Below are positions 2,414-13,029 of a stretch of DNA of 64,000 nt, piece by piece; position 1 is the stretch's first letter, and the number at the start of each line of letters is the position of its first letter. A program made the position numbers and the translations under genes. The DNA is taken from positions 87,912-151,911 of the forward strand of contig DAHVLZ010000019.1 in the NCBI GenBank assembly GCA_027320085.1, in the 5' to 3' direction. A model generated the notes under the pieces. It was not told where the DNA came from and made no database searches. It worked only from the letters and a program-made list of their open reading frames with translations. The stretch is from Pseudomonadota bacterium (GTDB taxonomy: Bacteria > Pseudomonadota > Gammaproteobacteria > JAKAQQ01).

Positions 2414-3706
2414 ATGATCCGGGTGGGGACGCTTCCCCAAAAGTTTGCGGGAATGCTCCGGCTCCCGGGCAGCAAGTACGTTGCCAATCGTGCCTTCCTC
2501 ATGGCTGCACTCGCCCGGGGAACCAGTGTGATCGAAAACGCCCCGGACAACCAGGACATAGAACGGGCGCGTGATTTCGGTTTTTTCCTCGGTGCCGATC
2601 TTTGCCGGGACGGGGAGGAGTGGCTGGTTCGAGGTGTTGCAGGATGCCCGGAATGGAGAAAACCAAAGGTGTTTTTCTGTGGCGAGAGCGGGACCCTGGC
2701 CCGCTGGGCTTTGGCCCTGGCCACACTGTCTTCAGATCCGATCCGGCTCGAGGGTGCCCCGCGACTCCAGGAACGGCCGATGGCGGAACTGGTGTCTGTG
2801 CTCATGAACCTGGGTGCGCGGATCGAGCCGGAAAACGCAAGGGGATTGCCGCTTTCGATATCGGGACCCCTGCGCGGTGGACGGGTGACGCTTTCAGGAC
2901 AGGTCAGCAGTCAGTTTGGCAGCGCCCTCCTCACGCTGGCACCCCTTTTGCCGGAGGGGCTGGTCATCGATTTCACCCATCCCCCCGTTTCCCGGAGCTA
3001 TCTCGAACTCACGCTCGAAACCCTGCGGACCTTTGGCGTCTCGGGAAGATGCGATCCGGACTGGCATCTCGAGGTTCCGGGCGGACAGCACTACCGGGCG
3101 ACCCGCATCCGGATTGACCCGGATCCGGTCCTCGCGGGCTACTTCATGGCGTTGCCGGCCGTACTGGGCGGCAGCCTCCACCTGCCCGGCTTTTTCCCCA
3201 AGGATGCGGGTGAGGGGAGAGTGGCCACGCTCCTCTCCCGCATGGGTCTGTCGGTCCGCGCCGGCGCGGAGGGTCTCACGGTTCTTGCCTCCGGAGAACC
3301 GCTCTGTGCCTTGGGGACCGTGGATCTGTCGGATGCGCCCGATGGGGTCCCCACGCTGGCCGTTCTCGCTGCACTGGCGGAATCCGGGACCACCCGGTTT
3401 ACCGGCATCGGTCATTTGCGGTACAAGGAATCCGACCGGCTCCTGGATCTGGCCCGCGAGATGGTCGCGGCGGGCCTCAACGTCCGGGTCGAGGCCGGAG
3501 ACTTGGTCATTCACGGGGGCGGGCGATTGCAGCCGGTGGTTTTGGACGCGCATGGGGATCACCGGCTGGCCATGAGTTTTGCCCTACTGGCGGTGGCCTG
3601 TCCCGGGCTTTCCATCCGCGGGGAAGCCAGTGTCGGGAAGTCTTCCCCGGATTTCTGGCGTAGACTCGAATCCCTCGGTATTTCCTGGGTTCCCGCCCGT
3701 GACTGA
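2414..3706 (+). CDS. aroA: 3-phosphoshikimate 1-carboxyvinyltransferase (EPSP synthase).
   Basis: The N-terminal LPGSKYVANRAFLMAALARGTSVIEN matches the AroA LPGSKSxSNRALLLAALA signature. Length is 430 aa, with an enolpyruvyl transferase fold pattern. Confidence 0.8.
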   Translation: MIRVGTLPQKFAGMLRLPGSKYVANRAFLMAALARGTSVIENAPDNQDIERARDFGFFLGADLCRDGEEWLVRGVAGCPEWRKPKVFFCGESGTLARWALALATLSSDPIRLEGAPRLQERPMAELVSVLMNLGARIEPENARGLPLSISGPLRGGRVTLSGQVSSQFGSALLTLAPLLPEGLVIDFTHPPVSRSYLELTLETLRTFGVSGRCDPDWHLEVPGGQHYRATRIRIDPDPVLAGYFMALPAVLGGSLHLPGFFPKDAGEGRVATLLSRMGLSVRAGAEGLTVLASGEPLCALGTVDLSDAPDGVPTLAVLAALAESGTTRFTGIGHLRYKESDRLLDLAREMVAAGLNVRVEAGDLVIHGGGRLQPVVLDAHGDHRLAMSFALLAVACPGLSIRGEASVGKSSPDFWRRLESLGISWVPARD

Positions 3707-3815
3707 CCAGACGAAGAAAGATGGAACGGGGATGCCTGAACCCGGGATTGATGGGGGGGCTCCAGCCCGGGCGGTTTCAGGTGGCGGAAACTTTGGGGTG
3801 GGACGGTGTCTCCCC

Positions 3816-4262
3816 ATGCGGTCCGGTTTAGTCGTGCTCCTCATGATCGGGCTTGCGGCATGCAACATGACCGGTTCCGCATCCGGACATTTAGGACGCG
3901 ACCGGAACCCCAGCCCGGTCACCGCTCCGGGCAAGACTTCCCGGGTGCTCCCGGCCCCAGTCACCCGTTTGACGTTACGCGTGCTGGCCCGGATGCGGGC
4001 CGGGCAGGATCCGGCGGTGCTCAGTGAAGCGGGGCGCTGGCAAGTCGACCGGAAGGGACGCTTGGATCTCGTGATCCGGCTCCAGGGGCATTGGGCCCCG
4101 CTGGTCCGCTGGATCCGGCATCAGGGGGGGCGGGTTGTGGCCGTGGTTCCCCTGGTGCACGAGTGCGAGGCCTGGATTCCGGCGGATCAGGTGGCTCGTC
4201 TGTCCCGGAGACCAGGGGTGGTTCTTGTCCGGTTTCCGCATTATGCTATGAACCGAAGGTAA
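3816..4262 (+). CDS. Lipoprotein, hypothetical.
   Basis: ORF 3579..4262 trimmed to Met 3816, because the longer form overlaps aroA. The new N-terminus MRSGLVVLLMIGLAAC is a lipobox signal peptide. Confidence 0.5.
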   Translation: MRSGLVVLLMIGLAACNMTGSASGHLGRDRNPSPVTAPGKTSRVLPAPVTRLTLRVLARMRAGQDPAVLSEAGRWQVDRKGRLDLVIRLQGHWAPLVRWIRHQGGRVVAVVPLVHECEAWIPADQVARLSRRPGVVLVRFPHYAMNRR

Positions 4263-4274
4263 GGAGTATTCATC

Positions 4275-6341
4275 ATGATGAAAGCTGTTTTCAGACTGGT
4301 TGTCGCGTTCGGGCTCGTCACAGCCTCGATCGGACTGGCCAAGGCCGGCAACAACCCGGTGAACCTAAGCAAGCTGGCGCCCGCCCTGCGGGAGGTGGCG
4401 AATGCGGCCCATGCGCCTCAGGCTCTCGCACGTGTGCAGGCGGAAGGCTATGTGTCAGGGTTGAGCAATGAGGTCCGGCCGGCTCCCGGCCAGGTCCGGT
4501 GGAATCGGGAGGGTGCGGTCCAGGTGGACGTGCGCTTTGCCACACCGCTCGCTCTCGGGGCCACACAAGCGTCCTTGCGTGCACTGGGTGCGCGCGGACT
4601 CGTCACCGACCCGTACAACAGCATTGCCGAGATGTGGCTGTCTCCGGCCAGCCTGATGCAAGTGGCGGCCCTGCCCGGTGTCCAGGCGATCACGGTGCCG
4701 CACTATGCGGTGGTGAGACGGGAGGTCGCCTACGGATCGAATCCAACCTACTACGATACCGCGGGGTCGAATGCCTTGGGAGCCGTTGCCTTCGCCAATG
4801 CGACGGGGGATATCGGGTCGGGAATCAGCGTCGGGGTGATTTCGGATGGCGCCCAGGACTACCAGACGGATGTCCAGCAGGGGTACCTTCCGAGCACTGT
4901 CTGGATTGATCCCAATGACTCGAAATACAAATCGTCGGGGAACGAGGGCGCTGCCATGATGCAGATCGTCTACGACTCGGCGCCCGGCGTGAAACTCGGA
5001 TTTTGTGGGCCGTCGACGGACATCCAATTCCTCTCCTGCCTGAGCGACTTCGAGAGTTCGTCCTTCAAGGCCAACATCATTGTGGACGACCTCGGTTTCC
5101 CGGGGGTGGCCATGTTCCAGAACGGGACGTTTGCGACGGGAGTCGCGAGTTTTGCCCAGTCCAACCCGAGCGTCCACCTGGTCACCGCAGCCGGCAACGA
5201 CAACCAGGCCTTCTGGCAGGGGACGTTCACGCCGATGACCCTGAGTACCCCGCTGACTCTGAATGGGGTTACCTATACGGAAGCCAACAATTTCGGGACC
5301 AGTGCCAATCCCAATCCTTATGCAGATGTGGGCATCGCGTCAACCGACACTGATTACTGGATTCTGGAATGGGCCGATCCTTGGGAAAGCCCGGTCGGGG
5401 ATTACGATGTGGTGGTCTATGCCCAAAAGCCGGGTGGGACGCCCGTGGCCTGCAACCAGGGTGACCAGATCGATTCGACGGGCTGCTCGTTTTCGACCAC
5501 GCCCGGTACGAGCCCGGGACCCAATCCGGTCCAGGGGAATGCCTATAAGAATACCGCGACGACTGCCCAGATCCTCTACATCGAGGTCCTGCTGCGCAAC
5601 AGCACGACACCGAGTACCTCGCTCAAGCTCCTGACCGGATCGGTGAGTTCCCACGCGCTTTTCCTGAACCCGGATTCCCCGAACGGCAGCATCTATGGGC
5701 AGTCCGCCCTGCCCCAGGAGTTTACGGTCGGCGCCATGGATGTCGATGAAGTGGGTAGCAGCACCGCGAAGATCGAACACTACAGTTCGACCGGTCCGGT
5801 TGATTTCGAGTACTCCTCCCTCACCTCGACGACCCCCTCGCCCACTTCGATTCCCAAACCGGACATCACGGGGGTGGACGGGGTCACGATCAACCCGCTG
5901 AGCGGTTTCACCCCGCCCTTTTTTGGCACGTCGGCGGCCGCGCCCCACATTGCAGCGCTCATGGCCCTGCTTCTCCAGCACGCCCCCACTACCAATCCCG
6001 AATCGACCCTGAAGACGGTTTCCAGCCTCCCCGGGGGGGCACCTGCGACCGGGGCCAGTAGCATTTATGGTGCCGGTGTGCCCTGCCTTGCGAAACTGAC
6101 GGCTGCGGGTGTTTCGGCCTGCAATCCCGACTCGACGGCTACCATCACGGTGGGTGGCAGTTCCTCTTCCGGGAGCAGCAGCTCGAGTTCCGGTGGGGGA
6201 GGGGGGGGGCTGGGTCCGATCGTCCTTCTCCTGCTGGCCGGTTTTGCGTGGGGTGGTGGATGGGCAAGCCGCCGGCGGAAGGGTGTTGGGTGTCCAACCG
6301 ATCGGGGAGGGCCACGAAATTCGGCGCTGTCATTGGAATAG
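4275..6341 (+). CDS. Secreted subtilisin-like serine protease (peptidase S8) with a Gly/Ser-rich linker and a C-terminal membrane-anchor or sorting-signal-like tail.
   Basis: It has a signal peptide, an Asp motif VGVISDG, an oxyanion/His region HLVTAAGN, and the catalytic Ser motif GTSAAAPHIAALMALL. The C-terminus reads GGSSSSGSSSSSSGGGGGGLGPIVLLLLAGFAWGGGWASRRRKG. Confidence 0.85.
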   Translation: MMKAVFRLVVAFGLVTASIGLAKAGNNPVNLSKLAPALREVANAAHAPQALARVQAEGYVSGLSNEVRPAPGQVRWNREGAVQVDVRFATPLALGATQASLRALGARGLVTDPYNSIAEMWLSPASLMQVAALPGVQAITVPHYAVVRREVAYGSNPTYYDTAGSNALGAVAFANATGDIGSGISVGVISDGAQDYQTDVQQGYLPSTVWIDPNDSKYKSSGNEGAAMMQIVYDSAPGVKLGFCGPSTDIQFLSCLSDFESSSFKANIIVDDLGFPGVAMFQNGTFATGVASFAQSNPSVHLVTAAGNDNQAFWQGTFTPMTLSTPLTLNGVTYTEANNFGTSANPNPYADVGIASTDTDYWILEWADPWESPVGDYDVVVYAQKPGGTPVACNQGDQIDSTGCSFSTTPGTSPGPNPVQGNAYKNTATTAQILYIEVLLRNSTTPSTSLKLLTGSVSSHALFLNPDSPNGSIYGQSALPQEFTVGAMDVDEVGSSTAKIEHYSSTGPVDFEYSSLTSTTPSPTSIPKPDITGVDGVTINPLSGFTPPFFGTSAAAPHIAALMALLLQHAPTTNPESTLKTVSSLPGGAPATGASSIYGAGVPCLAKLTAAGVSACNPDSTATITVGGSSSSGSSSSSSGGGGGGLGPIVLLLLAGFAWGGGWASRRRKGVGCPTDRGGPRNSALSLE

Positions 6342-6397: not shown

Positions 6398-9259
6398 TTG
6401 AGCCCCAAGGTTGAGGGCCCGTCTGTTCCACCGATGGTGCCAGATGCCGGTGGCTGGGTTGTTTTGGGCTGGCCTGCAGGGAGGATTCTCGGGGTCAGCC
6501 AAACCGTTGCCTCTGATTTCCAGGTTCTGAAAGAGGGTGCGGAACCTTCTTCGGATCGTCCCTCCACCGAATCCGGATTGCGCGATTGGCTGATCCGCGC
6601 GGTTCAGGAAAGCCAGAAAACAAACCCCCAACCACAGGATCCCCTCTCATCGCCAAACGGTCGGACCTGGTGGCTGTCAGGACATCCTGAACCCCTGGTT
6701 TTCAAGGGGCTTTCTTCATTTCTACTGAATCTCGTCGATCGGTCGCCCGCGCTCTCCGCACAGGTTCAGGATGGGTTTTCGGAAGAGGAGAGTCCGGATC
6801 GAGAGAATGCTTTCCTCAAGGAGCGCTACGACGTTTTGGTCGAGCACAGCCAGGACGGCGTGTTCCTGGCCCATGAGGGACGGTATCTCTACGTCAACCA
6901 GACCTATGCCAATATGCTGGGTTATTCCCGTGAGGAGATGGAAGGCTCTTCGTTCCTGCGTTTCATCGCCCCGGAGGAGCATGTTCGCATGCTCGAGATC
7001 TGGCGGGAGCGGGAAGCCGGCCGCTGGGAAAAGTCCACCTATGAAATGTTTCTGCTCAAAAAGGACGGAAAGACCCGGGTTCTGGCGTCAGTCCGGTCCG
7101 GCCCCATTTTTTTCAATGGCAAGCTCTCGAGTACCGGGACCATCCGGGACATCACGGCGGAGCGGAGTGCCGCGCGGGCCTTGCGGAAGATCGAGAGAGA
7201 CTACCAGGCGATTTTCGAGAACTCGCTGATCGGAATCTATCAGAGCCTGCCCGAAGGTCGATTCCGGACGGCTAACGAGTCACTGGCGCGCATGCTGGGT
7301 TACGGAAGCGCCCATCAGCTCGTGGAGCAGGTCCAGAACATCGCCAATCTCTTTGTGGATCCGGCCGACCGCTTGCGGCTCAATCAACGGCTGGATAGTG
7401 ATGACCATGTGACCGGATACGAACTGCGGTTGCGTCGGCGGGACGGAACACTGCTTTTCGCGGAAGCCAGCTCCCGTTCCATCCGGCGCAAGGATGGAAG
7501 CTTGGCCTATTACGAAGGCTCGCTCGTGGATGTGACCGAACGGAAACGGGCGGAAGCGGCCTTGATGCGATCGGAAATGCGGTATCGGACACTCGTCGAG
7601 AACAGCCATGTCGGCGTCTTCATCCTGGAAAAGAATCGCTTCGTATACGTCAATGAATCGTTTGCCCATATGCTCGGATGGGAATCGGAACAATTGGTGG
7701 GTCAGTCGTTCCGGGACTTGGTGCTGCCGAAGCTGCAGTCCGTGTGCGACGAATGTCTGGGCCGCCTGGCCCGTGCAGAATCCACCGTCGAATCGCGCGA
7801 ATGGTCCTTGGTCCACCGGGATCCGGCAGTGGTTCCGACGGCGCTGGTCAGCATGCAGAGTCTCGTGACCGATCTGGGCACGATTCTCATGGGCACTTCC
7901 GTCGATATTACCGAGCGCAAACGGATCGAGGCGCGCCTGATCCATCAAGCCGGACACGATCCCCTGACCGGTTTGCCTAACCGCGTTCTTTTCAGTGAAC
8001 AACTCGATCAAGCAATCCGGGGATTCGAGCCCGATCAGCGTCCCTATGCGGTCCTCTTGTTTGAAGTCGATACGTATCAACTGGTCAATGACAGTCTGGG
8101 CTACGTCGCCGGCGACGAGTTGCTCATCCGGGTCGCGCATCGACTGGAGCAAACCACAGGAACCCGGGCCTTTGTCTCTCGTCTCGAGGGCAGCGAGTTT
8201 GCTTTGCTGCTTTCCGTGCAGACCGTGGCCCAGGTCCGGGCCATGGTCGAGCAGATTCGCCAGAGTTTTTCCAAGCCCTTTACCGTCCTGGAACGGGAGA
8301 TTTTCACCCAGGTCCACATGGGGATCGTTTGGGGGGAGTCCAGCTACCAAGACAGCAATGCGGTTCTCCGGGACGCCGATACGGCGCTATCCGTCGCCCG
8401 CCTCCACAGTGATACCGGCTACGCTCTTTTTGACCGCCGCATGCGGCAAGAGGTTGTTCGGCGACTCAACCTTGAATCCGAGCTCAGGGCGGCCTTGATC
8501 CGGCAGGAGTTTCGTGTGCTTTACCAGCCGGTTGTTGAGCTGGACACGGGCCGGATGGTGGGGGTCGAGGCGCTTTTACGCTGGCAACGTCGCCCGAGCG
8601 AGCAGGTTTCGCCCCAGGTGTTCCTGTCCATCGCCGAAGAGATCGGCCTGATCATCCCGATTGGCATCCACTGCCTGCAGCAAATCTGCGAGACGGTTGT
8701 ACGCTGGAAGCACGAATACTCCTCAGCCGCCGAGTTGGTGGTTAATTTCAATCTGTCCCATCGCCAGTTTGTCGACCCCCTGTTCTGGGATCTCATGAGC
8801 AGCGTGCTCAGTGAGAGTCGCTTTCCGCCGAAGTATTTTCAGGTTGAAATCACGGAAAACGTTCTTCTGGGACAGGATCGTGGACTTTGGTTGCAGCTTG
8901 AGAAACTGTTGGGGATGGGGGCGAAGCTGGCCCTGGATGACTTTGGAACCGGATATTCCTCCCTCAGCTACCTCCACGATCTGCCATTGAGCAGCCTCAA
9001 GATTGACCGCTCATTTACCCTTGATCTTGAAGACAATCCACGACACCAAACAATCGTCCAAGCGATTTTGCGTCTTGCCAACGATCTTAACTTCAAAGCG
9101 ATTGTGGAAGGGATTGAAGAGGTGGGACAGCTCCGGGCCCTGCAGAAGGCCGGAGCGCGTTTTGGTCAGGGATATTACTTCGCTCCGGCCTTGACTGTGT
9201 CCGAACTGGAGGCTGGTCTTGCGGAAGGGGCCTGCTTTCCCCGCCCAGTGCTGCACTAA
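6398..9259 (+). CDS. PAS/PAC sensor protein with GGDEF and EAL domains, likely a c-di-GMP phosphodiesterase with a degenerate cyclase domain.
   Basis: It has repeated PAS segments. The GGDEF-domain core (DPLTGLPNR...) has EGSEF in place of GGDEF. The EAL domain has EALLRWQ and DDFGTGYSSL. The start codon is uncertain. Confidence 0.85.
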   Translation: MSPKVEGPSVPPMVPDAGGWVVLGWPAGRILGVSQTVASDFQVLKEGAEPSSDRPSTESGLRDWLIRAVQESQKTNPQPQDPLSSPNGRTWWLSGHPEPLVFKGLSSFLLNLVDRSPALSAQVQDGFSEEESPDRENAFLKERYDVLVEHSQDGVFLAHEGRYLYVNQTYANMLGYSREEMEGSSFLRFIAPEEHVRMLEIWREREAGRWEKSTYEMFLLKKDGKTRVLASVRSGPIFFNGKLSSTGTIRDITAERSAARALRKIERDYQAIFENSLIGIYQSLPEGRFRTANESLARMLGYGSAHQLVEQVQNIANLFVDPADRLRLNQRLDSDDHVTGYELRLRRRDGTLLFAEASSRSIRRKDGSLAYYEGSLVDVTERKRAEAALMRSEMRYRTLVENSHVGVFILEKNRFVYVNESFAHMLGWESEQLVGQSFRDLVLPKLQSVCDECLGRLARAESTVESREWSLVHRDPAVVPTALVSMQSLVTDLGTILMGTSVDITERKRIEARLIHQAGHDPLTGLPNRVLFSEQLDQAIRGFEPDQRPYAVLLFEVDTYQLVNDSLGYVAGDELLIRVAHRLEQTTGTRAFVSRLEGSEFALLLSVQTVAQVRAMVEQIRQSFSKPFTVLEREIFTQVHMGIVWGESSYQDSNAVLRDADTALSVARLHSDTGYALFDRRMRQEVVRRLNLESELRAALIRQEFRVLYQPVVELDTGRMVGVEALLRWQRRPSEQVSPQVFLSIAEEIGLIIPIGIHCLQQICETVVRWKHEYSSAAELVVNFNLSHRQFVDPLFWDLMSSVLSESRFPPKYFQVEITENVLLGQDRGLWLQLEKLLGMGAKLALDDFGTGYSSLSYLHDLPLSSLKIDRSFTLDLEDNPRHQTIVQAILRLANDLNFKAIVEGIEEVGQLRALQKAGARFGQGYYFAPALTVSELEAGLAEGACFPRPVLH

Positions 9260-9270
9260 GCACTGGGCGG
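9241..9270. terminator. Probable bidirectional terminator hairpin between convergent genes.
   Basis: An 11-bp perfect stem, ccgcccagtgc ... gcactgggcgg, with an 8-nt loop. It spans the stop codon of the GGDEF-EAL gene and lies 14 nt from the stop of the convergent gene. Confidence 0.5.
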
Positions 9271-9283
9271 TCCGAGCAGCTAG

Positions 9284-10150
9284 TTAGCTTTGATGTGGAA
9301 TGTGCCCACCACCGTGCCCGCCTGCTCCCCGCATGGGCCCGCCCCGGAACCGTCCTCCGGGCCCGCCCCGGAACTGGCCGGGTCCGCCCCGGAACTGGCC
9401 GGGTCCGCCACGGAACTGGCCGGGTCCACCACGGAACTGACCGGGTCCACCCCGCATGGGTGGCCGGCCTGGAGCCATGGGTTGGAAAGGGCCGTGCCGG
9501 AGGGGGCCGTAAAAATGGGGATGGGGAGGGTAACCTCCACCCTGGCGTGCGCGATACTGGTTGAACCTCTGCCGGATATTGGGGTGACTCGCGATGAAGC
9601 TACGGCGGTAGTTGGGATGAGCCGGCGCAAAAATGGGGTGCATGCGGGGGCCGCCGCGATGTTCCCAGAAATCGGGGTGATTGCGGAAGCGGGGAACGGC
9701 ACGCTGACGCCAGTCATCGAAGTGATCGAGGTAGGGGTGATAGCGACCCCACCAGTAGGGGTGATGCATTTCGTACCAGGGTCCGACATAGCCCCGCCAC
9801 CACATGAAGTACGGACGGTAGGCGATGACAGGTGGGGGTGGTCCATAGAGCAGGACCTGAGGCAGGACAAACCAAGGTGGTAAGGGAGCCCAGGGGCCAT
9901 AGTAGACCGGGGCATAGAGCCAACCCCCTTGATACCAGCGATAGTAGTAGCCGTTACCGTAATAGGTATAGGTTGCAAAACTTGGCATCCAGAAAACGTT
10001 GACCCCGCCGAAAAGCGAGAAGGCGAATGTCGGTGCACCTATAAAAACACCGAACTGCGCACGGGCAGGCCGAACCGGAACTAGGAGAAAAAGAGCCAAT
10101 ATCCCGGCCATCAGGAGGGTCTGATGGTTTTTCTTTCGTGGATTCAACAT
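9284..10150 (-). CDS. Secreted low-complexity Trp/Tyr/Pro/His-rich protein with a C-terminal (GGPGQFR)n repeat, hypothetical.
   Basis: ORF 9284..10210 trimmed to MLNPRKKNHQTLLMAGILALFLL..ARAQ. A GGAGAC ribosome-binding site lies 5 nt upstream. The protein has a signal peptide, an extreme aromatic/proline composition, and 7-aa tandem repeats encoded by 21-bp DNA repeats. Confidence 0.6.
   Translation of the reverse strand: MLNPRKKNHQTLLMAGILALFLLVPVRPARAQFGVFIGAPTFAFSLFGGVNVFWMPSFATYTYYGNGYYYRWYQGGWLYAPVYYGPWAPLPPWFVLPQVLLYGPPPPVIAYRPYFMWWRGYVGPWYEMHHPYWWGRYHPYLDHFDDWRQRAVPRFRNHPDFWEHRGGPRMHPIFAPAHPNYRRSFIASHPNIRQRFNQYRARQGGGYPPHPHFYGPLRHGPFQPMAPGRPPMRGGPGQFRGGPGQFRGGPGQFRGGPGQFRGGPGGRFRGGPMRGAGGHGGGHIPHQS
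9340..9447. repeat. A 21-bp tandem repeat in about 5 units (gccccggaactggccgggtcc and variants). It is coding and lies inside the 9284..10150 CDS.
   Basis: Direct inspection shows units at 9364, 9385, 9406 and 9427, plus a degenerate first unit. Confidence 0.85.
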
Positions 10151-10353
10151 GGTAGTCTCCTCTGCCGGGTTCCCCGGCGTTGCCAGGTCACGGATCCCTC
10201 CGCCTGCCACTCGAAAAGAGGGTGGGACACCCCATCCACTGTATCAAACGCTGTCTGCCCGGGTTGGTTGACCCCTAGGGGTTTTTTACAGTGGTTTAGT
10301 GTATGATGCCACGGGTCTTAGTCTGATTTGGAGCTTCGGCTCAGGAGTTTGCG

Positions 10354-10698
10354 TTGAACAATAAGCTTTATGTTGGTAACCTGAACTACCGGACCAATAG
10401 CGCGGAGCTTGAACAGCTCTTTGCTGCCTATGGTTCGGTGCGTTCCGTACAGATCATATCGGATCGACATACCGGTCAGTCCAAAGGGTTTGGTTTCGTG
10501 GAAATGGGCAGTGCTCAGGAAGCCCAGGCAGCCATGAACGCTCTCAATGGAAAGGATTTCAATGGCCGGAATCTCACCGTGAATGAAGCCCGCCCGCAGA
10601 CGGAAAATGGAAACCGTGGCGGCGCCTCCCGGGGCCCGGGTCGGCGCAGTGGCGGCTTTGGGGGCAGCCCCTCGTCTGGAGGACACGGTCACTTCTAA
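10354..10698 (+). CDS. RRM-type RNA-binding protein with a glycine-rich C-terminal tail.
   Basis: The start MNNKLYVGNLNY fits RNP2 and KGFGFVEM fits RNP1. The tail is Gly/Arg/Ser-rich. Confidence 0.9.
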   Translation: MNNKLYVGNLNYRTNSAELEQLFAAYGSVRSVQIISDRHTGQSKGFGFVEMGSAQEAQAAMNALNGKDFNGRNLTVNEARPQTENGNRGGASRGPGRRSGGFGGSPSSGGHGHF

Positions 10699-11109: not shown

Positions 11110-13029
11110 ATGGCCACTCGACCCACGGCCCGACGCACCCCTGTCCGACTGCTTCTGGTCAATCCCCGCTTCCCGGAAAGTTTCTGGAGTTTCCGGTGGG
11201 CGTTGGAGCGGATCTTGCCGGGCAAGCGGGCGGTCAATCCGCCTCTGGGTTTGGCCACGGTAGCCGCCCTGTGCCCCCCTGACTGGTCGGTCCGGATTGT
11301 CGACGAAAACATCGAATCGATCCCGTTGGAGCCCGATGTGGATATCATCGGGGTTTGCGGGATGGGCGTCCAGTTCAAGCGGGAAAGCGAGATCCTGAAG
11401 TACTACCGGAGTCGCGGCTATTATGTCGTGGCGGGTGGCAGTTATGCGTCCCTCTGTCCGGAATCCTTCGGGGAGCTGGCACACACCGTCATTTCGGGCG
11501 AGGCTGAATATGTCTGGGGACGGTTTTGCGAGGACTTCCAGGCGGGGCAACCCCAGTCGCTGTACCGGGAAACCGGAACCGTGGACCTCGCCGATTCACC
11601 GCCCCCCCGTTTTGACCTGCTGAAACTTGAACAGTACACGACTGTCAGCTTACAGTTTTCCCGCGGGTGTCCGTATCGGTGCGAGTTCTGCGACATCATT
11701 GTCATGTTCGGTCGCCGACCGCGCACCAAACGGCCGGAACAGATCGGAATGGAACTGGATCTCCTGCGGGAGCGAGACGTTCACAACGTCTTTTTTGTTG
11801 ATGACAACCTGATCGGTAACAAGAAGGCGGCGCGCGAGCTCTTGATCTACCTTGCCCAGTACCAGCGAAAACATGACTATGTCTTTCGTTTCGGCACCGA
11901 GGCCTCTCTCAATCTCGCCCTGGATGACGAGTTGATGGAACTGTTTCGCGCGGCCAACTTTAGCTGGGTTTTTCTGGGGATCGAGACCCCGGATCCGGAC
12001 AGCCTGCAGGAGGTCCAGAAGACCCAGAACCTGGCTCAGGACGTGCTGACGGCCGTGCGGAAGATTTATGACCACGGGCTTGATGTCTTTGCTGGATTTA
12101 TCGTGGGCTTCGACCATGATCGTGTGGAGACGTTCGACCGCCAGTACCGCTTTATCCTGGATTCCGGAATTCAGGCTTCGATGATCGGGTTGCTGACCGC
12201 GATGCCCAAGACTCCGCTCTACGAGCGGTTGACCCGGGAGGGTCGATTGGTGCCCACGCTCGAGCTGGCCGACAACACCAAGCCTGTGACGAACGTGGTT
12301 CCGCTGCACATGAGTGTGGCTGATCTGGTCCGGGAGTATCAGTCGCTCTACCAGCGACTGTTCTGCGATGCCAATATCGCCAAACGCATCCGCAACAAGT
12401 TCCGGTATCTGGCACACCGGGTTCCGCGTCACCAGGTTCCATCCGAGCGTAACGGAACGATTCTGCGCCGGCTGTTCTATTCCGGCCTGTTGCCGGGCGG
12501 GCCGGTTCGGGTCTACCGCTTCGTTTCGACGCTGGTGGTGACTCCGTGGCGGGCCTGGCCTCTGGTTGTCACGGACTGGATTCAGGGCCTTTCCATCCGT
12601 TCCTACATTCACCGGCATCTCGACCCTGACTTGGCGCAAGCACAACGCGTGGTGGAGACGACACGAAAACGGTTGAGCAGGTACCTGCACCCGCGGTCCT
12701 CAACCCCTTCCCTCCGGGTGGCCCTGTCCATGAATGGCACAATCCCCTGCCTGCAGCTGTGGTTGGAGGGGACGGTGGATCGGGCTTTTTTCCGGTATGC
12801 AGCACGTCGGCTCTGCGGCATGCTGAACCAGAGTGCGGCGGCGCTTTTCCTGCATGTGGCGGATCTGCGCGAGGATCAACACCGGTTGTTTGACCGGTTT
12901 CTGGACCGTTTGTCTCCCTATGGAGACCGGGTCTCGATTTTCATCAACCAGAAGATCCGGACGCAGATGATGGTCGACTCGTCTGTTTTCCATCTCCTGC
13001 TCGAAGATCCGACCGCCAGCGCATCGTGA
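11110..13029 (+). CDS. B12-binding-domain radical SAM enzyme with a C-terminal extension (DUF4070-like), function unknown.
   Basis: An N-terminal cobalamin-binding-like region (LLLVNPRF..., GGSYAS) is followed by the radical-SAM cysteine triad CPYRCEFCD. Length is 639 aa. Confidence 0.8.
   Translation: MATRPTARRTPVRLLLVNPRFPESFWSFRWALERILPGKRAVNPPLGLATVAALCPPDWSVRIVDENIESIPLEPDVDIIGVCGMGVQFKRESEILKYYRSRGYYVVAGGSYASLCPESFGELAHTVISGEAEYVWGRFCEDFQAGQPQSLYRETGTVDLADSPPPRFDLLKLEQYTTVSLQFSRGCPYRCEFCDIIVMFGRRPRTKRPEQIGMELDLLRERDVHNVFFVDDNLIGNKKAARELLIYLAQYQRKHDYVFRFGTEASLNLALDDELMELFRAANFSWVFLGIETPDPDSLQEVQKTQNLAQDVLTAVRKIYDHGLDVFAGFIVGFDHDRVETFDRQYRFILDSGIQASMIGLLTAMPKTPLYERLTREGRLVPTLELADNTKPVTNVVPLHMSVADLVREYQSLYQRLFCDANIAKRIRNKFRYLAHRVPRHQVPSERNGTILRRLFYSGLLPGGPVRVYRFVSTLVVTPWRAWPLVVTDWIQGLSIRSYIHRHLDPDLAQAQRVVETTRKRLSRYLHPRSSTPSLRVALSMNGTIPCLQLWLEGTVDRAFFRYAARRLCGMLNQSAAALFLHVADLREDQHRLFDRFLDRLSPYGDRVSIFINQKIRTQMMVDSSVFHLLLEDPTASAS

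Follow-up and report, generated by a model that had tools for sequence, protein, structure and literature searches.

A putatively exported protein with an aromatic domain and a repeat-bearing polycationic tail represents an undescribed family almost confined to acid-mine-drainage bacteria

The gene at 9284-10150 and its flanking signals

The window analysed here is a 64,000-nucleotide stretch from a Pseudomonadota bacterium (GenBank assembly GCA_027320085.1, contig DAHVLZ010000019.1, positions 87,912 to 151,911 of the forward strand), and all coordinates below are positions within it. We studied a minus-strand gene at 9284-10150 that an initial annotation, made from the sequence alone, had described as encoding a secreted low-complexity protein rich in Trp, Tyr, Pro and His and ending in short tandem repeats. 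The gene lies within a minus-strand open reading frame (ORF) listed at 9284..10210, and its 288-amino-acid product is read from an ATG at 10150 to a TAA stop codon at 9284-9286. The ATG at 10150 is likely the start, because a Shine-Dalgarno-like GAGGAG (10157..10162, minus strand; read from the sequence) lies 6 nt upstream, because homologues begin at the same MLNP and because the frame is lost further upstream. Indeed, the AGGA of this site is invariant in an alignment of five related loci, close homologues all start with MLNP(R/H)(K/R)KN, and upstream of the ATG the same alignment shows 1-nt indels and loses conservation. A GTG-extended start at 10210 was rejected on the same grounds.

A scan upstream of the gene found no sigma-70 promoter, and a terminator scan requiring a T run returned no canonical terminator for it. 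RNA folding placed a G+C-rich hairpin with a 12-bp inner stem directly past the stop codon (9234..9279, minus strand; -33.5 kcal/mol, z = -4.5, with 0 of 200 shuffles equally stable). This hairpin lies between the target gene and a convergent PAS-GGDEF-EAL gene, overlapping the last codons of the latter, and is terminator-like but has no U tract on either strand. In a scan of the window at Rfam gathering thresholds, three tRNAs were the only matches.

A coding gene under purifying selection

We calculated the ratio of nonsynonymous to synonymous substitution rates (dN/dS) by the Nei-Gojobori method in the frame of the window protein, against four related loci (L009, L011, L002 and L010; L and P numbers are our handles for loci and proteins). 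Whole-protein dN/dS was 0.065-0.157 at a dS of 0.6-1.15, and it was low both in the N-terminal core of the mature protein (0.07-0.14) and in its C-terminal tail (0.06-0.16). In addition, a protein-level identity of 37-59% is kept across genomes with a local GC content of 28-44% and of 57-69%. The ORF is thus a genuine coding gene under purifying selection, with the low dN/dS and the protein conservation across differing GC excluding a compositional or antisense artefact. Such an artefact, i.e. a spurious ORF arising from GC-rich repeats or lying antisense to a plus-strand gene, might have been suspected from the odd composition and from ORFs that overlap in other frames (e.g. 9290-9883 on the plus strand, 197 aa, and 9280-10038 on the minus strand, 252 aa). 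Its probability is vanishingly small: besides the constraint acting in the target frame (dN/dS 0.06-0.16) and the conservation of the protein into the low-GC genomes, all repeat indels are in frame, the signal peptide and the Shine-Dalgarno sequence are conserved, and AlphaFold2 confidence is high. An antisense origin, which the initial annotation had named as the finding that would overturn it, is therefore refuted by the dN/dS values.

Composition and predicted export

The mature protein of 256 aa consists of 17.6% Gly, 15.2% Pro, 10.2% Arg, 8.6% Phe, 8.6% Tyr, 5.9% His and 4.7% Trp, compared with 1.7% Trp, 1.9% Tyr, 3.6% Phe and 8.3% Pro in the long ORFs of the same window. These counts bear out the earlier description of a sequence dominated by aromatic residues and proline after the signal peptide, and the two peptides quoted for it, YYGNGYYYRWYQGGWLYAPVYYGPWAPLPPW and HHPYWWGRYHPY, are both present in the translation. 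The mature protein contains neither Lys nor Cys and carries a net charge of about +21 at pH 7, rising to about +41 at pH 3.

Residues 1-32 (MLNPRKKNHQTLLMAGILALFLLVPVRPARA/Q; 10055..10150, minus strand) read directly as a signal peptide of the signal peptidase I type, with a basic n-region (MLNPRKKNHQT), a hydrophobic h-region (LLMAGILALFLLV) and an AxA c-region (PVRPARA, then Q). Throughout the family, signal peptides were judged by eye from the sequence rather than by a dedicated predictor. Among the N-termini of 56 loci, about 26 carry a lipobox (LSGC, LAGC, LTGC, LAAC, LSAC and others), about 22 an AxA site and a few a variant signal end such as LSGF or LSGW, with the AxA or lipobox signals of the homologues falling at the same place as the site in the window protein. 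The latter is not a lipoprotein, as it has no lipobox ([LVI][ASTVI][GAS]C) and no Cys anywhere. Where the residue following the lipobox Cys was read, it was Ala or Val and not Asp, which fits the outer-membrane sorting rule for Proteobacteria. The layout of the signal peptide, ending in ARA/Q, and the AxA sites or lipoboxes of the 56-member family thus uphold the export proposed initially: the window protein is predicted to be exported, being periplasmic or soluble here and lipid-anchored in many relatives. That the domain is retained while the protein switches between soluble and lipid-anchored forms points to the periplasm or the outer membrane as its site of action.

A conserved aromatic domain with no detectable relatives of known structure

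Residues 33-176 (9623..10054, minus strand) form a conserved core of 144 aa, delineated by alignments and AlphaFold2, of which 30% is Trp, Tyr or Phe and 15% Pro, and which we assign to an undescribed family. Conservation runs, in order, through FAFS..GV..Y, Y.Y..NGYYYRW...GW.Y....Y.GPW, LP..L.YGPPPP, YRPYF.WWR, PWY, HP.WW and W.....Y..HP. Across 126 unique family sequences nine Trp are invariant, and the YRPYFxWWR and HPxWW motifs are kept. With an alignment of 16 sequences, AlphaFold2 modelled the full-length protein at a predicted local distance difference test score (pLDDT) of 59, the tail being mostly disordered; when the alignment was widened to 50 sequences and the model restricted to mature residues 1-180, the pLDDT rose to 82 at a predicted template-modelling score (pTM) of 0.72, and most core blocks reached 85-95. 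The architecture predicted from this model is a five-strand beta meander followed by a GPPPP linker and several helices. DSSP assignment on the model puts the meander, whose five strands end in GPW, at residues ~41-87 (9890..10030, minus strand). The G-P-P-P-P linker (residues 103-107; 9830..9844, minus strand) is kept in 123-126 of the 126 unique sequences, and the helical subdomain, with helices rich in Trp, Tyr, His and Arg, is predicted at residues ~112-162 (9665..9817, minus strand), i.e. positions 82-132 of the 180-aa construct, at a pLDDT of about 87-95.

The initial description as a low-complexity protein therefore holds for the last ~110 residues, which are disordered, while residues 33-176 are a conserved domain.

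Searches for relatives of known function or structure returned nothing above chance. The window protein had no match in Pfam or NCBIfam at E ≤ 10, the best Pfam E-value among 50 family members was 0.13 (a single chance-level match), and 20 distant relatives matched neither Pfam nor NCBIfam. Sequence searches of the PDB gave best E-values of 2 (phmmer) and 4 (profile). Foldseek with the core model reached a best E-value of 2.6 against the PDB, at a template-modelling score of ≤ 0.16, and of 0.67 against BFVD; taking the core and the full-length models together, no match fell below 0.67, and the top matches (CPAP G-box, VgrG/pyocin spikes and CyaY) were all rejected as chance level.

The residues conserved across the 126 unique sequences are Trp, Tyr, Phe, Gly, Pro, Arg and His; no conserved Asp, Glu, Ser, Cys, Lys, Thr or Asn was found among them. 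If the core has a ligand site, H130 (120/126), H158 (100/126, replaced by Arg in 16) and M170 (99/126) are the foremost candidates. As no acidic, nucleophilic or Cys residue is conserved, an enzymatic role of the family appears unlikely, in agreement with the initial remark that the composition matches no standard enzyme: the invariant positions comprise Trp, Tyr, Gly, Pro, Arg and one or two His, with none of the catalytic type.

The meander is the one part of the core for which relatives emerged. Its pattern (..FFYxGxWYRxxxGxWxxxxxYxGPW..) is homologous to a module of unnamed secreted proteins (hhalign probability 96.7%, E 4e-10), among them P0044, P0047, P0048 and P0050, which share the beta module, signal peptides and charged tails. 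In contrast to the window protein, they are without the GPPPP linker and the helical subdomain, carry the module singly or two to four times, and match no Pfam or NCBIfam model. A third search, with the beta-module profile, yielded four unnamed fragments only.

A disordered polycationic tail with length-variable repeats

Residues 177-288 (9287..9622, minus strand), delimited by pLDDT, composition and dN/dS, make up a tail of 112 aa that lacks Asp, Glu and Lys and contains 27% Gly, 16% Pro, 14% Arg and 7% His; its pI is 12 and its charge about +25 at pH 3. Residues 202-288 are mostly below a pLDDT of 50 in the full-length AlphaFold2 model, consistent with disorder. Tandem Repeats Finder reported a 21-bp period (4.7 copies, 93% match; 9357-9454) and a second row at 9335-9437; unit-by-unit translation resolved these into four perfect 21-bp repeats encoding GGPGQFR (9368..9451, minus strand) and two degenerate units spanning 9329..9367 (minus strand), namely GGPGGRFR (9344-9367) and GGPMR (9329-9343). 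The 21-bp GGPGQFR units reported initially thus stand, with coordinates (9340-9447) that were a few bases off.

The array varies in length, as the initial annotation had surmised in proposing that copy numbers be compared. Alleles in the 90%-identity cluster of the window protein that are identical outside the array have three, four, six or nine GGPGQFR units, giving proteins of 281, 288 (the window protein), 301 and 323 aa, respectively. Sister lineages vary as well (GGPGPGQFR in two, three or four copies; GGPGQFR in one, two or three copies before GGPGPMR; three versus ten copies of GGPGQFH), and the repeat unit of L009 is 27 bp long. All observed array changes are in frame, and the 21-bp unit is a multiple of three; this rules out a phase-variable contingency locus, and array change is length variation rather than on/off switching. 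The 319-aa P0091 was discarded as a further repeat variant, being merely an upstream-extended gene call. Repeat arrays that exceed the read length can be mis-assembled, and those above about 150 bp (9-10 copies) could be products of short-read assembly. L034 contains a run of N/X within its tail array of GGPQRF units, showing that such arrays are hard to assemble and that copy numbers from short-read metagenome-assembled genomes (MAGs) need caution.

Across the family, it is the basic character of the tail that is conserved and not its sequence. Tails range from 14 to 180 residues, with a pI of 11-12 in about 50 of 56 members, and are rich in Arg, Gly and Pro in high-GC hosts and in Lys, Asn and Arg in low-GC hosts. 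In 12 of 52 distinct tails, a unit of 5-16 residues occurs in tandem in three copies or more, and these units are variations on a common theme (GGPGQFR/H, GGPGPGQFR, GGPQRF, GQGRQMG, RRGPV, QGPAFRGPMQQ, YRGQGQRGRMQPG and LMRQNRI). The C-terminus in the clade of the window protein is HGGGH or HGHGHG, and such His-rich ends are missing from most of the family.

A family almost confined to acid-mine-drainage bacteria

A first homology search returned 15 relatives and a profile search 41, and a hidden Markov model (HMM) search run exhaustively over 1.84 billion cluster representatives picked up only 42 at E ≤ 1e-3 (20 of them at E ≤ 1e-30); the family is very small. The hallmarks of this family, which we refer to by its GPPPP and YRPYFxWWR motifs, are the meander ending in GPW, GPPPP, YRPYFxWWR, HPxWW, a basic tail and a signal peptide; the window protein has all of them, scores 202.8 bits against the core HMM (E 2.9e-61) and retains every invariant residue.

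A pattern scan across 185,579 species, each represented by a single genome, identified 50 loci in 46 genomes. Hosts comprise MAGs assigned to Acidiferrobacter or Acidiferrobacteraceae, 'Deltaproteobacteria' FK_Sedi bins, a fragment from one Acidithiobacillus MAG (L058) and Ca. Acididesulfobacter diazotrophicus AP1, which originates from an artificial system of acid mine drainage (AMD; PMC6776010). Many further hosts are labelled 'Proteobacteria bacterium' or 'bacterium' and carry isolate prefixes (DBS, WY, TL, MAS and others); DBS, WY, TL and MAS correspond to mining areas in a survey that covered 90 samples of AMD sediment (PMC12153355). The cluster of the protein encoded next to the target gene, which contains an RRM domain, likewise includes entries labelled 'mine drainage metagenome' and 'Gammaproteobacteria bacterium'. 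The family is thus almost confined to AMD bacteria, nearly all of its genomes being MAGs from AMD sediment, and no fewer than two unrelated lineages, found together at low pH, share it; outside those lineages it was not found in the species survey, whose sampling is dominated by one project.

Our literature search found no description of the family, and a metatranscriptome paper on Ca. Acidulodesulfobacterales contains no expression statements about it. Orphan families are common in metagenomes. The present family and its predicted fold appear to be undescribed, the novelty lying at the level of family and modelled fold, with no mechanism demonstrated. A parallel exists in the orphan core gene families I-V of Acidithiobacillus, which are genus-unique and envelope-associated by prediction (PMC5186765). 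Both cases concern hypothetical acidophile proteins of restricted distribution that have no relatives in databases and are predicted to act in the envelope, but the present family resides in Acidiferrobacter-like Proteobacteria and Ca. Acidulodesulfobacterales, with only the single fragment mentioned above from Acidithiobacillus.

Some members depart from the common plan. Two copies are present in four genomes, with the paralogue pairs L025/L027, L019/L034, L036/L048 and L018/L050. L056 holds a tandem pair (3412-4423 and 4856-5879) of longer, divergent members of ~336-340 aa. A subgroup of 420-520 aa (P0021, P0023, P0026 and P0031) has an extra N-terminal domain of ~150 residues (YYYTGIWNGQRVYLQLVPNVTVE, GESLNIWAAPSEF) that has no Pfam match, together with very long tails rich in Pro, Arg, Val and Ile.

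A candidate role in the envelope at low pH

What we tentatively favour is a role in the cell envelope that suits low pH and involves no catalysis, with the polycationic tail attaching to anionic groups of the envelope. The aromatic domain would dock on an envelope surface or a partner, and the tail would bind groups that are still anionic at pH 2-5, i.e. the phosphates of lipopolysaccharide (LPS), phospholipids or nucleic acids, sulfate esters, sulfated or uronic polymers and some carboxylates, by means of salt bridges from Arg and of cation-pi contacts between Arg and aromatic residues. The resulting layer of fixed positive charge may stabilise the envelope and disfavour the entry of protons and metal cations, with repeat number tuning the length and charge of the tail. 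In acidophiles the membrane potential is kept inside-positive, and spermidine, a polycation, belongs to their first-line defence against proton entry (PMC7231039). We would add that, under such a potential, exporting so cationic a chain should be less unfavourable than it would be for a neutrophile.

A bolder version, in which the family is an acid and metal defence made of protein and peculiar to AMD bacteria, we regard as fairly improbable in its entirety. It would have a new-fold aromatic domain anchor a hyper-cationic Arg/aromatic tail of the 'sticker-spacer' kind within the periplasm or on the outer membrane, where a Donnan-type layer or a condensate bridged by sulfate or polyanions excludes protons and metal cations; repeat slippage would tune the tail, and horizontal transfer would have carried the gene between unrelated phyla within the habitat.

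Several points weigh against an envelope role of this kind. The signal-peptide call depends on inspection by eye, and a charge-shield effect would require the protein to be highly abundant. A few members (L029, L036 and L054) have short or near-neutral tails. One large AMD survey supplies most of the genomes, so the habitat signal may be inflated. Finally, among the 58 loci compared, no neighbourhood shared across lineages links the gene to envelope biogenesis, synteny being lineage-specific only.

The structural, metal-binding and adhesive roles that the initial annotation had raised are speculative. The closest likenesses in the proposed workings of the protein are to Asr of Escherichia coli and to the idea of a polyamine 'positive shield'. 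Asr is described as working in the periplasm as an intrinsically disordered chaperone that helps to keep the outer membrane intact when acid stress is severe (PMC10746267), and it shares with the window protein Sec-type export, a strongly basic, repeat-containing disordered sequence and the link to low pH. This precedent invites the proposal that the window protein is a functional analogue of Asr, guarding envelope proteins or the outer membrane from acid-induced aggregation; as an exported, highly basic and partly disordered protein of low-pH hosts it would suit such a task, and its aromatic-rich surface could bind unfolded clients. We nevertheless rate this chaperone function as rather improbable, because no sequence relation to Asr or HdeA/B was found (no Pfam match at E ≤ 10), because Asr is small and disordered while the window protein combines its tail of Arg, Gly and Pro with a large, rigid and conserved folded domain of 140 residues, arguing against membership of the Asr family, and because the periplasmic proteomes of obligate acidophiles are constitutively acid-stable. 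The likeness to the cationic defences of acidophiles, i.e. spermidine and the inside-positive potential (PMC7231039), is conceptual: in either case, fixed or bound positive charge at the envelope would hinder protons from entering, and the mechanism proposed here is a protein counterpart of that idea, but those defences are small molecules and ion gradients and not an exported protein.

Unlikely as well, though somewhat less so than the chaperone function, is a role in biofilm matrix or adhesion, in which Arg and aromatic residues would act as cation-pi 'stickers' and Gly, Pro and Gln as 'spacers', so that the protein self-associates. It might then form a gel or coacervate with sulfate, extracellular DNA or acidic polysaccharide, or serve as a mussel-foot-like glue between cell and mineral. 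The composition in Gly, Pro, Arg, Tyr, Phe and Trp, a tail without acidic residues and the repeat architecture all point this way; such composition combined with repeats resembles cationic-aromatic adhesive or phase-separating sequences, and length-variable repeats are common in surface proteins. Genes for cyclic di-GMP (c-di-GMP) turnover within 0-4 kb in both major lineages could be read in the same sense, but such genes are numerous, their proximity may be due to chance, and in the low-GC clade they are not adjacent. Moreover, the hosts include sulfur and iron oxidisers on the one hand and sulfate reducers on the other so that they do not share one mineral substrate, many members are lipoproteins without evidence of surface exposure, and secretion-system or matrix genes are absent nearby.

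Two classes of eukaryotic protein illustrate the chemistry without implying homology. RGG/GAR domains (FUS, nucleolin, fibrillarin, LAF-1) bind polyanions and self-associate, and with their repeated R-G-G, interspersed Phe or Tyr and Gly/Pro/Gln spacers they resemble the window tail, which contains six RGG triplets (in the FRGGPG repeats and MRGGPG). They are intracellular and nucleic-acid-binding, however, whereas the window tail lies behind a signal peptide in a protein with no RNA-binding domain by Pfam; the similarity would be one of compositional convergence. The mussel foot proteins mfp-1/3/5 are secreted, rich in Gly, Tyr/Trp and Arg/Lys, built from short tandem repeats and dependent on cation-pi chemistry and 3,4-dihydroxyphenylalanine (DOPA). 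Secretion, cationic-aromatic composition and short tandem repeats are the shared features, but the mussel proteins are of animal origin and carry the DOPA modification.

A long shot, finally, is the binding of metals or oxyanions (Cu, Ni, Fe, arsenate, sulfate or phosphate) in the periplasm, either at His/Met/Trp sites of the core or by the His/Arg tail with its GGHGGGH end. Conservation of H130, H158 and M170 in most members, the His-rich C-terminus of the window clade and a habitat rich in metals and sulfate would speak for it. Yet the substitution of H158 by Arg in 16 of the 126 sequences, the incomplete conservation of M170, the protonation of His side chains at pH 2-4, which makes them poor ligands, the lack of Cys and of any match to known metallochaperone families, the missing His-rich ends in most of the family and the lack of adjacent metal-resistance genes all argue otherwise. 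The probability that remains we assign to a function that we have not yet thought of.

The ways in which Gram-negative acidophiles shield their periplasm and outer membrane, compartments that are near the external pH and under a high metal load, are poorly understood. Ion gradients, lipids, porins and polyamines are the recognised 'first-line' acid defences; among proteins, the family is a tangible candidate for a part in envelope defence, and one that can be cloned. It is also a natural bacterial example of a putatively exported sequence with Arg/aromatic repeats, a class of sequence that is studied for phase separation and wet adhesion. Should its function prove mundane, the domain would still merit a family entry, as no Pfam or NCBIfam model covers it.

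Gene neighbourhood

In the clade of the window protein, the target gene is divergent from the gene for the RRM RNA-binding protein and convergent with the PAS-GGDEF-EAL gene (6398-9259, plus strand). In the low-GC clade it lies between a gene of the metallo-beta-lactamase fold and gap-pgk-lspA-leuS, and in Acidiferrobacteraceae among truA, trpFBA and accD. The c-di-GMP genes of the low-GC clade encode HD-GYP and often PAS-GGDEF proteins (at loci including L026, L035, L038, L041, L042 and L049), and their recurrence near the family gene in both clades is weak evidence that may reflect chance. No operon partner, mobile-element gene or secretion-system gene was found near the target gene among the 58 loci. 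A toxin or antimicrobial-peptide precursor was set aside as a candidate, the gene being single-copy among housekeeping genes, often encoding a lipoprotein and having no partner genes for immunity or export.

Adjacency of the RRM gene (10354-10698, plus strand) and the target gene is kept only in the close clade. Beside the TTG start of the RRM gene, ~95 nt (10259-10353) are near-invariant in five loci whose coding dS is 0.6-1.1, the remainder of the intergenic region being variable. This pattern suggests that the RRM gene may have a conserved 5′ leader or regulatory element at 10259-10353, which has no Rfam match at gathering thresholds. The 114-aa RRM protein itself has a Gly/Arg-rich tail end (NGNRGGASRGPGRRSGGFGGSPSSGGHGHF) that echoes the GGHGGGH end of the target, a likeness that is probably a compositional coincidence in a GC-rich genome. 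Adjoining the RRM gene, a plus-strand gene at 11110-13029 encodes a radical SAM protein of the B12-binding type with a C-terminal DUF4070 domain, which is the lone member of its own 90%-identity cluster.

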